Source: Enterobacteria phage M. From it: a stretch of DNA of 3,405 nt. Location of the stretch: the sequence record JX625144. The stretch is one strand, 5' to 3'. The notes beneath the pieces were generated by a model. That model did not search any database, was not told the DNA's origin, and saw nothing but the letters and a program-made list of their open reading frames with translations. Made by a program: the position numbers and the translations under genes. This document shows positions 1,746 through 3,304 of this stretch, in pieces; positions within the stretch are counted from its first letter, which is position 1, and each line of letters begins with the position of its first letter.

Positions 1746-3304
1746 CTCGGAAAAGAAGAGTAACAATAAGTACTAGTCAATTCCACGTTCAGCTCGACGA
1801 GCAGTGGGTCCTCCGAAGGATCTCCGAATCACTCGATTTGAGTGATTTTCGGAATAGCTATCTGGTAAAGTCTTTACTTTCCAAATATGCTGCGCCATCG
1901 AAGGAAAGTGCCCGGGCTCGCCAGAGGGCAGCTATCGCTAAACTCTTATGGACATCTCGTCGCAATCGCGACACAGAGTATCGTTTGCTTCGACGCGATA
2001 GTAAGCAGGATTTTATGTTCTTGCTCACACGCGAAGTTGCAAATCTACTCGGTGATGTCCCTGAGTTTGAAGGTTTATCATCTTTTAGTGGGGGTGCTTC
2101 GACACGACATCGTCGTGGTAAAAGTCAACCTCAAGAAAAGTTTGATGGATATGGCGATACGACTGCAAGCAACTTACCGTTAGCCCGAAAGAGTATCCTA
2201 GCCTCACCTGCTTGGAGCTGCAATTCCGCAGTATCCACTGGTGGGACTTTAGAACTCCGACTGGTTCCTGGTAATGTTGTTTTCACTGTACCTAAGTCTA
2301 ATGTTATAGATCGGGCTGCTGCTAAAGAGCCTGACCTGAACATGTACGTCCAGAAGTTTTATGGAGATCATATCCGTGGCCGGCTACGCCGGTTTGGTAT
2401 AGACCTCAATGACCAAGGACGTAATCGTGATCTTGCCCGCCAGGGTAGTATCACGGGAGACTTAGCGACTCTCGATCTTTCAAGTGCTAGTGACTCTATA
2501 ACAAGGATCCTTATGCTCGAGGTATTACCTCCTGCCTGGTTCGATGTTTTAGACCGTGCTCGCAGTAGATGGACTAATGTGAACGGCGTTTACCGCCAGC
2601 TACATATGTTCTCTACTATGGGTAACGGGTTCACTTTCGAACTTGAAAGTCTGTTATTCTTCGCTGTTACCAGAGTTACTCTGAAAATGCTAAATATTCA
2701 GGGTACTATCGGTATATACGGAGATGACATAATCTGTCCGACATCCGCTGCACGCGAGGTTGTAAGTAATCTCGAGTACATCGGGTTTAAGACAAATATC
2801 GATAAGTCGTTTATCGAAGGACATTTTCGGGAGTCGTGTGGCGGCCATTATTATAAAGGCCGTGACGTAACTCCCTTCTACATTCGCAGTCCCTTAAACA
2901 ACATCCAGAGAATAATCTGGCTGCTGAATAAGATTCGCGAGTGGTCCTCCGAAGGAACAACCATTGCCGTTGAGCTAGAGGAATTATATTTTGAAATATA
3001 TAATAAATTTAGCATTCTGCGTTCTCTTACTGGTTGCGGGGGACTCGATAGCATATCGAGTCTCGCAATACCTGGCGCCTTTGGTGGATACCTTCACCAA
3101 GTGACACGTAGAGTCGCAGTCAACGAAGATGGCGCGTATGTCCAAGCCCTCCTTAAAGGATCTCCGTCTGATACTCTCCGGTTCGTTTCTGTTGAAACAA
3201 GTCGTTATGAGATTAGACAGTGGTCCGATAAGGTAAGACCTGACATGTGTCGTTCCTTGTACAGTAATGGTCGTATGGTCTATTTCCTAAGGGAAATAGG
3301 CTAA
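1742..3304 (+). CDS. rep: RNA-dependent RNA polymerase (replicase beta subunit), 520 aa
   Basis: Longest ORF, 3'-proximal as in all leviviruses. ATG at 1742 with AGGA (1732-1735) 6 nt upstream; stop TAA at 3302-3304. Contains the catalytic motif [11 protein letters not shown] (YGDD encoded at 2717-2728) and an upstream D-x4-D-like region (DLSSASDS), as expected of levivirus replicases. Confidence 0.95.
2991..3104 (+). CDS. Candidate single-gene lysis protein, 37 aa, embedded in the +1 frame of the replicase gene; UUG start
   Basis: Translating frame 0 myself: TTG(2991) AAA TAT ATA ATA AAT TTA GCA TTC TGC GTT CTC TTA CTG GTT GCG GGG GAC TCG ATA GCA TAT CGA GTC TCG CAA TAC CTG GCG CCT TTG GTG GAT ACC TTC ACC AAG TGA(3102-3104) gives [43 protein letters not shown] (2977-2982) lies 8 nt upstream of the TTG. 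Residues about 4-22 ([19 protein letters not shown]) form a hydrophobic stretch long enough for one transmembrane helix, the hallmark of levivirus lysis proteins. No canonical lysis ORF exists at the coat/replicase junction, so a lysis gene must be elsewhere. It is too short to appear in the ORF track. Confidence 0.6.

Follow-up and report, generated by a model that had tools for sequence, protein, structure and literature searches.

Does the replicase gene of phage M hide a second small gene besides its lysis gene? Leviviruses hide small lysis genes in other genes, and phage M is a textbook example of this, so that long embedded open reading frames (ORFs) in its genome merit checking. The window analyzed here is the whole stretch of 3405 nt, the complete genome of this single-stranded RNA phage, specific for IncM plasmids. 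Its identity rests on an IMG/VR contig of 3405 nt that matches it at 100%, on the exact replicase match given below, and on the genome length, lysis-gene coordinates and a primer position, all of which agree with the genome paper (PMC3561173); a megablast against a phage collection gave no match. The question arises from the following features of the window:

1742-3304, + strand: replicase gene (RNA-dependent RNA polymerase beta subunit, PF03431), with a product exactly matching AFU61981.1 / YP_007111575.1.
1887-2183, + strand: flagged ATG-initiated ORF of 98 codons in the +1 frame of the replicase, from the ORF list; judged here a chance, non-functional frame.
2991-3104, + strand: lysis gene lysM, 37 aa, with a UUG start codon and a GAGG Shine-Dalgarno (SD) sequence (PMC3561173).

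The ORF, predicted to encode 98 aa, is present on the + strand as the preliminary description had claimed; it starts 145 nt inside its host gene, the replicase, and shares its frame with lysM, which begins 1104 nt downstream (the start coordinates 1887 and 2991 are both divisible by 3). It is the longest alternative-frame ORF within the replicase and the sole long one with an ATG in the ORF list. The further claim that it was the only other sizeable embedded ORF did not hold, the genome also containing 1061-1384 (GTG, 107 aa) and 1246-1497 (TTG, 83 aa). The lack of an SD sequence was borne out: the 23 nt before ATG1887 (GGTAAAGTCTTTACTTTCCAAAT) hold no purine run resembling one. On the minus strand, ORFs at 1858-2028 and 2131-2343 were dismissed because, to our knowledge, the minus strands of leviviruses are not translated.

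As a positive control for an embedded +1 gene we used lysM, the single-gene lysis (Sgl) gene of phage M, whose product inhibits MurJ (Rumnieks & Tars 2012, PMC3561173; Chamakura et al. 2020, PMC7693330). Both lysM and the flagged ORF are contained wholly in the replicase gene of one genome and share its +1 frame. The comparison set consisted of phage M and five M-like genomes (L023-L027; 88-89.5% nucleotide identity; source runs SRR18186844, SRR33038017, SRR17030294, ERZ781412 and JGI 3300066765), six in total, which fall into three sub-lineages. Scanning a metagenome collection with a 30-nt invariant pattern from the lysM region, present in 6/6 M-like genomes, returned 0 matches, so the collection evidently contains no M-like samples; nor did the first 165 residues of the replicase, used as a protein query, retrieve any partial M-like contigs. 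The control behaved as a gene should. Start codon, SD and length of lysM are kept in 5/5 relatives, and the best 19-residue Kyte-Doolittle window of its product scores 1.96-2.18 in 6/6 genomes, reflecting a conserved hydrophobic helix. Synonymous variability in the replicase drops into a trough at about 2927-3090, over lysM and the region upstream of it (minimum p=1.6e-6), and this deep trough at a true embedded gene demonstrates that the profile works. Only two strong troughs of this kind were detected in the replicase gene, the one at lysM and another at 2074-2172. In lysM we therefore have a conserved UUG, GAGG and stop, a transmembrane helix, a trough and experimental lysis, whereas the ORF 1887-2183 has none of these.

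The comparison of the ORF with its counterparts begins with its two ends. ATG1887 is ACG in 4/5 relatives (L023-L026), and TAG2181 is missing from 5/5, their frames ending at 2199 or 2250. Together with the lack of an SD within 23 nt, the loss of the ATG from most genomes means that no retained translation start of the Sgl type was found for the ORF. According to the genome paper, the sole unifying feature of levivirus lysis proteins is the presence of at least one hydrophobic transmembrane helix (PMC3561173), and we judged this feature by the 19-residue Kyte-Doolittle mean. The best window of the ORF product scores 1.65 in M and at most 1.27 in each of the five relatives, so across the six genomes the helix typical of Sgl proteins is not found, and the hydrophobic segment is specific to M. 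Accordingly, the layout of a basic N-terminus followed by hydrophobic stretches, which had been likened to that of the MS2 lysis protein L, stands for M itself (N-terminus MLRHRRK, then moderately hydrophobic stretches) and is not conserved in the five relatives; the remark that charged residues break the hydrophobic stretches was correct, the best segment of M containing Q, D, S and R.

The product as a whole shows a similar lack of conservation over most of its length, in the following region:

1887-2075, + strand: 5' two thirds of the ORF, free of synonymous-site constraint in the replicase and with a freely diverging +1 product.

Here 28 of the 55 eligible replicase codons vary synonymously (0.51), against 43% elsewhere, and identity among the M-like genomes is 59-75% for the +1 product and 92-97% for the replicase. 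We also weighed a programmed frameshift that would join the N-terminal part of the replicase to the +1 frame, and rejected it on conservation alone, the +1 product showing none upstream of 2067.

These observations bear directly on the reading that all 98 codons form a real second gene embedded in the replicase, for example one for an accessory lysis or membrane protein, translated from AUG1887 or, in the relatives without this AUG, from GUG1908. The frame is open in 6/6 M-like genomes, GUG1908 is conserved with an AAGGA ahead of it, lysM sets a precedent for an embedded +1 gene in the same genome, and the M product is basic at its N-terminus with a marginally hydrophobic window. However, the AAGGA lies just 2 nt from GUG1908, which is too close; the other candidate start has no SD and is mostly lost; the stop is not conserved; and the relatives lose the hydrophobic segment from a product that diverges where the replicase shows no synonymous constraint. 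Searches of Pfam, PHROGs and a set of 5.8 billion proteins with the ORF product found no homologue. The lytic clone 2098-3129, the sole one named in the genome paper, leaves out most of the ORF (PMC3561173), and our literature search retrieved no report of an expression or lysis test for it. In addition, all more distant relatives examined have stops in this frame, and an open frame is expected by chance, as detailed below. We consider it extremely improbable that the full ORF is a gene.

Comparison with known embedded or overlapping lysis genes leads in the same direction. The M product alone recalls MS2 L and L-like proteins in its basic N-terminus and moderately hydrophobic stretches, but L genes span the coat/replicase junction and depend on translational coupling to the coat gene, whereas the ORF begins well inside the replicase without an SD, and its hydrophobic segment, interrupted by charges, is not conserved even at 88-89.5% nucleotide identity. 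The lysis gene of phiCb5 encodes a longer two-helix protein fully within the replicase gene (cited in PMC3561173). The ORF resembles it as a long replicase-embedded frame, and its two hydrophobic patches could suggest two helices; unlike a gene of that type, it has no transmembrane-grade window in any relative, and its start, stop and sequence are unconserved. The suggestion of an MS2-L-like lysis gene or another overlapping gene thus finds no support in the comparative tests.

Why, then, is the frame open? The relevant unit is the stop-free run that contains the ORF:

1869-2180, + strand: 104 codons of the +1 frame without a stop, lying between TAA1866 and TAG2181.

When the synonymous codons of the replicase were shuffled 5000 times, 6.6% of the shuffles produced a +1 ATG-initiated ORF of 98 or more codons, and 12% a +1 run of 104 or more codons without a stop. 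A replicase codon with U at its second position followed by a codon beginning with a purine is the sole route to UAA, UAG or UGA in the +1 frame. Such pairs are very few in the stretch, which encodes a hydrophilic N-terminal region of the replicase rich in Arg, Ser and Lys. Within the run just four replicase codons (1934, 2024, 2036 and 2048) could yield a +1 stop by synonymous change; counting the codon of the ORF's own stop, the codons at risk amount to 4.8 per 100 in the stretch, against 11.9 per 100 across the replicase gene, and the product of the probabilities of remaining open is 0.12 for the stretch. Owing to this scarcity of codons able to create +1 stops, the +1 frame across the stretch remains open passively. 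Phage M happens to carry an AUG near the start of the run, and UAG2181; its closest relatives mostly carry neither.

The same calculation determines how the relatives are to be read. Across the whole replicase only 1/31 open sites at risk has turned into a stop in the relatives, and the probability that no new stop arises in the stretch is about 0.88 by chance, so that the open frame in the five close relatives is uninformative. Outside the M-like group, all 17 of the 17 genomes examined (Fiersviridae) have 2-8 stops in the homologous stretch, including four sister-clade genomes with 3-7. Stops in close relatives, named beforehand as a sign against a gene, are thus absent from the close genomes, where their absence carries no information, and every genome examined beyond them has some. 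A frame open beyond chance, as dual coding would demand, was not found (5/5 close genomes open with about 0.88 expected, 17/17 distant ones with stops), and neither was a synonymous drop along the whole ORF with matching edges. Supported by the shuffles, the relatives and the lack of homologues, the initial view of a most likely chance open frame can be strengthened: the ORF 1887-2183 is almost certainly a chance open frame and not a gene.

One part of the ORF nevertheless departs from this neutral pattern. Unreduced synonymous variability over 1887-2183 had been named as another sign against a gene, and it is seen over 1887-2075 but not over 2076-2183, where variability is strongly reduced: in a trough at about 2072-2190, only 5 of the 35 eligible codons (2076-2183) vary, against 43% elsewhere (Fisher p=1.5e-4). 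The edges of the trough do not match the ends of the ORF. They run from the base of a predicted hairpin at 2074 to just past AGCAAC (2173), and in each of the six genomes the constraint ends near 2173, short of the relatives' +1 stops at 2199 and 2250. The structural features of this stretch are:

2074-2149, + strand: predicted long irregular RNA hairpin of 76 nt and 29 bp in minimum-free-energy (MFE) folds, almost invariant in the six M-like genomes.
2103-2117, + strand: apical stem-loop CACGAC-AUC-GUCGUG, invariant in 6/6 M-like genomes.
2150-2172, + strand: tail following the hairpin on its 3' side, conserved except at 2167, with two complements of the U1 loop.

Invariance in 2076-2172 alone cannot separate constraint on the RNA from constraint on a +1 peptide, because each change that is synonymous in the replicase is non-synonymous in the +1 frame; folding and the more distant relatives bring further evidence. 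The MFE z-score is -3.0 for 2066-2160, and weak (-0.93) for 2060-2200 alone. All 29 predicted pairs are retained across the six M-like genomes (100% of cells paired), three substitutions at paired sites staying compatible with pairing (U-G to C-G, A-U to G-U and U-A to U-G) and a fourth falling in an internal loop; no double compensatory change was found among these six. Hairpins with their apex on the same GAST codons were predicted in L028-L031, PRR1, Hgal1, MS2, AVE017 and others, where the +1 frame is closed. RNAalifold on 14 genomes from all clades gave no consensus structure in a common register, and since the hairpins share position and shape rather than register, we relied on per-genome folds and on a pair count within the sister clade. 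In the latter set (L028, L029, L031 and PRR1), the paired fraction of cells is 87%, compared with 28-52% for slid controls, and 4 pairs are compensatory. An Rfam scan of the window gave no match.

A short +1 peptide might also account for the trough at 2076-2172, starting at UUG2067 (or at GUG2088 or GUG2094) and measuring 38 aa in M and 44 or 61 aa in relatives. All three in-frame start codons are conserved, the peptide is 89-94% identical among the six genomes, the trough is real, and lysM likewise has a UUG start and encodes 37 aa. Yet no SD precedes these codons and the nucleotides upstream (2053, 2056, 2059 and 2062) vary freely; the C-terminus, set by stops at 2181, 2199 or 2250, is not conserved while the constraint ends at one place in all genomes; no hydrophobic window is of transmembrane grade (none above 1.27, and interrupted by R, H, D and K); and the start codons would sit at the foot of a stable 29-bp hairpin or within that foot, a hairpin which relatives keep with the homologous +1 frame closed. 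That such a peptide causes the trough is accordingly very unlikely, and we give just as little credence to a double duty of 2067-2183, in which a hairpin and pseudoknot site would coexist with the short peptide (UUG2067, 38 aa in M) in all M-like phages. If true, the latter would make this stretch a fifth protein of phage M, hidden beneath an RNA replication element.

The low diversity at 2076-2172 could alternatively reflect a recent recombinational exchange or sweep, or codon-level constraint on translation of the replicase, given that the segment is short (about 95 nt) and that only six genomes from three sub-lineages were compared. Exchange of the segment is argued against by its sub-lineage substitutions (2075/2080 in L023/L027; 2122 and 2167 in L024-L026), which follow the same phylogeny as the flanks. 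Against this group of explanations as a whole stand the positionally conserved hairpin in distant relatives and the coincidence of the sole other strong trough with a proven functional element, lysM; we accord them only a slight chance. The RNA hairpin together with a candidate pseudoknot site accounts for the local constraint at 2074-2172 better than the ORF does, and extra selection within the ORF, confined to this stretch, most likely acts on the RNA.

The candidate pseudoknot site lies in the tail that follows the hairpin, and its proposed partner lies at the 3' end of the genome:

3371-3399, + strand: 3'-terminal hairpin U1, with the loop AUUGCUAUG (3381-3389), proposed partner of 2168-2172.

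In the tail, GGCGAU (2153-2158) is complementary to the U1 loop through a pairing that includes G-U wobbles, and AGCAA (2168-2172) can form five Watson-Crick pairs with UUGCU (3382-3386), 1214 nt away. The latter pairing was proposed from a single sequence by Rumnieks & Tars 2012 (PMC3561173), and we find AGCAA invariant in 6/6 M-like genomes. As a complement of the U1 loop about 1.2 kb upstream within the replicase gene, AGCAA is weak evidence alone, with 10 such 5-nt complements genome-wide. The comparison of loop and partner was made across phages only, the M-like contigs stopping short of the U1 loop. The U1 loops differ between phages, and in M, MS2, Hgal1 (7 nt), C-1 and L031 a stretch of 5 nt or more that is Watson-Crick complementary to the phage's own loop lies no more than 16 nt from the homologous codon, while PRR1 showed no Watson-Crick complement to its U1 loop at the expected place. 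The rough product of the per-genome chance probabilities is about 1e-4, a figure to be read in light of the genomes being related and the site overlapping conserved codons.

The closest analogue of 2074-2172 is found in Qbeta, which has an internal replicase-binding M-site (nt 2545-2867) and a long-range pseudoknot joining the loop of its 3'-terminal hairpin to a sequence some 1.2 kb upstream (Klovins & van Duin 1998/1999, cited in PMC4176380, PMC3561173). In both phages a structured element located a few hundred nt into the replicase gene is followed by a complement of the U1 loop at a similar spacing, 1214 nt in M and about 1221 nt (~1.22 kb) for the Qbeta complement AAAGCAG at 2972. The likeness has limits: the candidate pairing of M comprises just 5 bp, the M stretch has no sequence similarity to the Qbeta M-site, and the Qbeta complement lies 93 nt downstream of the homologous codon position, the M site being some 90 nt nearer to the corresponding replicase codons. 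By analogy with Qbeta, a 76-nt hairpin followed by a short tail with the loop complement may serve to draw the 3' end towards an internal domain that the replicase recognizes, for initiation of the minus strand, and the virus probably uses the hairpin and the candidate long-range pairing site for replication.

On the whole, the ORF 1887-2183 is very probably non-coding and a mere by-product of how the replicase is encoded; only 2074-2172 within it is under extra selection, most likely on RNA. The ORF fails each comparative test that lysM passes in the same six-genome set, which provides a worked control for telling real embedded genes from passive open frames and spares an expression experiment. 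A useful yield is the comparative evidence from five previously undescribed M-like genomes for a probable RNA element of about 100 nt at 2074-2172, which contains the long-range pairing site proposed in the 2012 genome paper. An interaction of the Qbeta type between the 3' end and an internal site thereby becomes more credible in a plasmid-specific levivirus, and directly testable.

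Phage M is an IncM-plasmid-specific levivirus whose genome was described by Rumnieks and Tars (2012; PMC3561173), and the window is the complete phage M genome (JX625144), matching that description in genome length, in the lysis-gene coordinates (2991-3104) and in the position of a sequencing primer (3072-3091). A sequence 100% identical to the whole 3405-nt window was found in IMG/VR, although an INPHARED-derived phage collection gave no megablast match to phage M. The genes and embedded frames considered here are as follows.

Genes and embedded open reading frames of phage M
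90-1277, maturation gene
1305-1706, coat gene
1742-3304, replicase gene, 520 aa, exact match to AFU61981.1 / YP_007111575.1, "replicase beta subunit [Enterobacteria phage M]"
2991-3104, lysM, lysis gene in the +1 frame within the replicase, UUG start, 37 aa
1887-2183 (+), candidate ORF, +1 of the replicase, ATG at 1887, TAG at 2181-2183, 98 codons
1061-1384, embedded ORF, GTG start, 107 aa
1246-1497, embedded ORF across the maturation/coat junction, TTG start, 83 aa

The preliminary description of the candidate ORF was accurate as to its ATG start, its 98 codons in the +1 frame inside the replicase, the sharing of that frame with lysM, and the absence of a Shine-Dalgarno sequence, none being present within 23 nt upstream of ATG1887. 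It is the longest alternative-frame ORF within the replicase, but it had also been called the only other sizeable embedded ORF, which is incorrect for the genome, as 1061-1384 and 1246-1497 are of similar size. The former is a chance frame, since stops interrupt it in the related genomes L024 and L027; the latter is open in M, L024 and L027 with a near-invariant product, probably because RNA structure or the ribosome-binding site of the coat gene constrains the sequence.

Among 5000 synonymous-codon shuffles that left the replicase protein unchanged, 6.6% contained a +1 ATG-initiated ORF of at least 98 codons and 12% a +1 stop-free run of at least 104 codons; the corresponding values for codon-order shuffles were 3.0% and 5.9%. 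The length of the candidate ORF is not beyond chance. A +1 stop can arise only where a replicase codon with U at position 2 and a purine at position 3 precedes a codon that begins with a purine, and only four such at-risk codons lie in 1869-2180 (1934, 2024, 2036 and 2048), a density of 4.8 per 100 codons (including the codon giving the ORF's own stop) versus 11.9 gene-wide. The open +1 frame is thus a passive result of the amino-acid composition of this hydrophilic part of the replicase. Across the whole replicase (1742-3304), M carries 27 +1-frame stops versus 17-23 in its five closest relatives, many M stops being missing from these genomes, which have gained stops at only two positions.

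These relatives (L023-L027) are the five other members of the replicase's 90% cluster, retrieved from ENA, JGI and Logan assemblies; they share 88.0-89.5% nucleotide and 93-96% protein identity with M and split into two sub-lineages. The last roughly 20 nt of L026 are non-viral, since its Logan contig ends (1682-1700) in CTGTCTCTTATACACATCT, which we take to be a Nextera transposase adapter. Stops in close relatives had been proposed as evidence against a gene, and the frame is in fact open at 1869-2180 in all five. However, of the 31 at-risk open sites gene-wide, just one had become a stop in any relative, so that four sites would stay open with a probability of about 0.88 and the open frame is almost weightless. 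The gene-defining signals are not retained: ATG1887 is ACG in four of the five relatives and TAG2181 is missing in all five, whose frames end at 2199 or 2250. Over 1887-2075, the +1 product of M is 59-75% identical to those of the relatives (replicase, 92-97%). The hydrophobic segment noted earlier occurs only in M (best 19-residue Kyte-Doolittle window, 1.65), the relatives' best windows reaching at most 1.27; LysM scores 1.96-2.18 in all six genomes. Farther away, the homologous +1 stretch contains 3-7 stops in the next clade (L028-L031; 51-52% replicase identity) and 2-8 in 17 Fiersviridae genomes, including PRR1, C-1, Hgal1, MS2 and Qbeta. Neither Pfam nor PHROGs contained a family matching the product, and a search of 5.8 billion proteins gave no homologue.

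Synonymous variability among M and the five relatives was examined at the 454 replicase codons whose amino acid is degenerate and the same in all six genomes; 44% of these codons vary synonymously. Sliding windows revealed only two strong troughs. The first (about 2927-3090, minimum p=1.6e-6) takes in lysM plus its upstream SD/hairpin, and its recovery at a true embedded gene validates the method; lysM is lytic in experiment (PMC3561173), its product has been reported to inhibit MurJ (PMC7693330), and it is intact in all five relatives (UUG start, GAGG Shine-Dalgarno, 37 codons, stop). This trough, the deepest in the replicase, begins some 60 nt before the lysM start codon (region considered, 2927-3104), in keeping with the SD/hairpin context reported in 2012. 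Weaker dips occur at the replicase 3' end (3227-3301; 3/18 codons vary, p=0.015) and 5' end (1742-1816; 5/19). The former fits the terminal replicase hairpin/3' domain, and the latter the coat-protein operator.

The second strong trough (about 2072-2190, minimum p=1e-4; 5/35 codons vary versus 47% elsewhere, Fisher p=1.5e-4) overlaps the candidate ORF. The reduced variability sought as a mark of coding was therefore found only in part, 1887-2075 being unconstrained (28/55 codons vary). The gene reading fails all tests passed by lysM in the same data; despite the open frame and the partial trough, we regard a real full-length gene as extremely improbable. The candidate ORF is very probably a chance open frame, and the preliminary description was right in this main guess, given the chance-level length, the lost start and stop and the unconstrained 1887-2075.

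Folding of M offers another reading of the constrained stretch.

Predicted RNA features within the second trough
2074-2149, irregular hairpin, 29 bp
2103-2117, apex of the hairpin, CACGAC-AUC-GUCGUG

Folding z-scores were -3.0 for 2066-2160 and -4.0 for 1980-2280. Only four sites vary within the hairpin across the six genomes, one in an internal loop and three paired, and the latter still pair (U-G to C-G, A-U to G-U, U-A to U-G), leaving 100% of cells paired; this variation is compatible with the structure, short of covariation proof. Variation returns right upstream (2053, 2056, 2059, 2062) and downstream (2174, 2175, onward), even though the relatives' +1 frames run to 2199 or 2250. Two other readings of the low diversity, non-functional causes and a short peptide translated from UUG2067, are both very unlikely. 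The edges of constraint (2074-2172) coincide with the RNA element rather than with the candidate ORF.

Predicted folds of L028-L031, PRR1, Hgal1, MS2, AVE017 and others also contain a long hairpin whose apex falls on the same replicase codons (FS-x-GAST...R), and the +1 frame is closed in every one of these genomes. In L028, L029, L031 and PRR1, 87% of cells pair versus 28-52% in slid controls, compensatory double changes occur at four pairs, and the observed pairing was attained by 1/500 shuffles. RNAalifold gave no single-register consensus across all clades; the hairpin is thus conserved in position and shape, not base-for-base.

From the M sequence alone, Rumnieks and Tars proposed a pairing between UUGCU, in the U1 loop (U1 being the 3'-terminal hairpin), and AGCAA, "some 1215 nt upstream"; such a contact would be similar to the long-range pseudoknot that Qbeta needs for replication (PMC3561173). 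AGCAA lies at 2168-2172, within the constrained stretch, and is invariant in 6/6 genomes, an observation confined to the upstream side because no M-like contig extends to the U1 loop. The loop, AUUGCUAUG (3381-3389), has two candidate partners in M: AGCAA (5 Watson-Crick bp) and, alternatively, GGCGAU (2153-2158; 6 bp including 2 G-U). We scanned for Watson-Crick complements (at least 5 nt) of each phage's own U1 loop near the codon homologous to M 2153. They occurred within 16 nt in M (+15), MS2 (-3, CAAGCA), L031 (+1), Hgal1 (-2, AAAGCGA, 7 nt) and C-1 (-1 and +16), with none in that range in PRR1; in Qbeta, AAAGCAG (2972) precedes the loop by about 1.22 kb. GGCGAU overlies conserved Gly-Asp codons, where perfect own-loop complements lie in Hgal1 (AAAGCGA), C-1 (AGCGG), L031 (GCGAU) and MS2 (CAAGCA); as the loops differ between phages, the matches from the scan may amount to loose covariation. 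The joint probability of such matches by chance is roughly estimated at 1e-4, but the genomes are related and the site overlaps conserved Gly-Asp codons. Separately, a 3'-UTR hairpin after a G-run (window 3340-3365) shows strong covariation within the M-like group (M, GGUCUCAUCACUCCUGAUGAGAUU; L023, GGUUUCCACUAACCAUAGUGGGAUU; L024, GGUCUCACUAGUAAUAGUGAGAUU), the stem being preserved while stem sequence and loop are both swapped.

The partial synonymous constraint most likely belongs to the RNA hairpin together with a probable long-range pairing site, and the function proposed for this element is somewhat more likely than not. Minus-strand initiation in Qbeta depends on the internal replicase/S1-binding M-site (2545-2867) and on long-distance contacts that lie directly downstream (PMC4176380), and the phage M element (2074-2172) occupies a comparable position in the replicase gene. 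The trough at 2072-2190 could have been misread as supporting an overlapping gene; the RNA element adds to a type known before, and part of it had been predicted in 2012.
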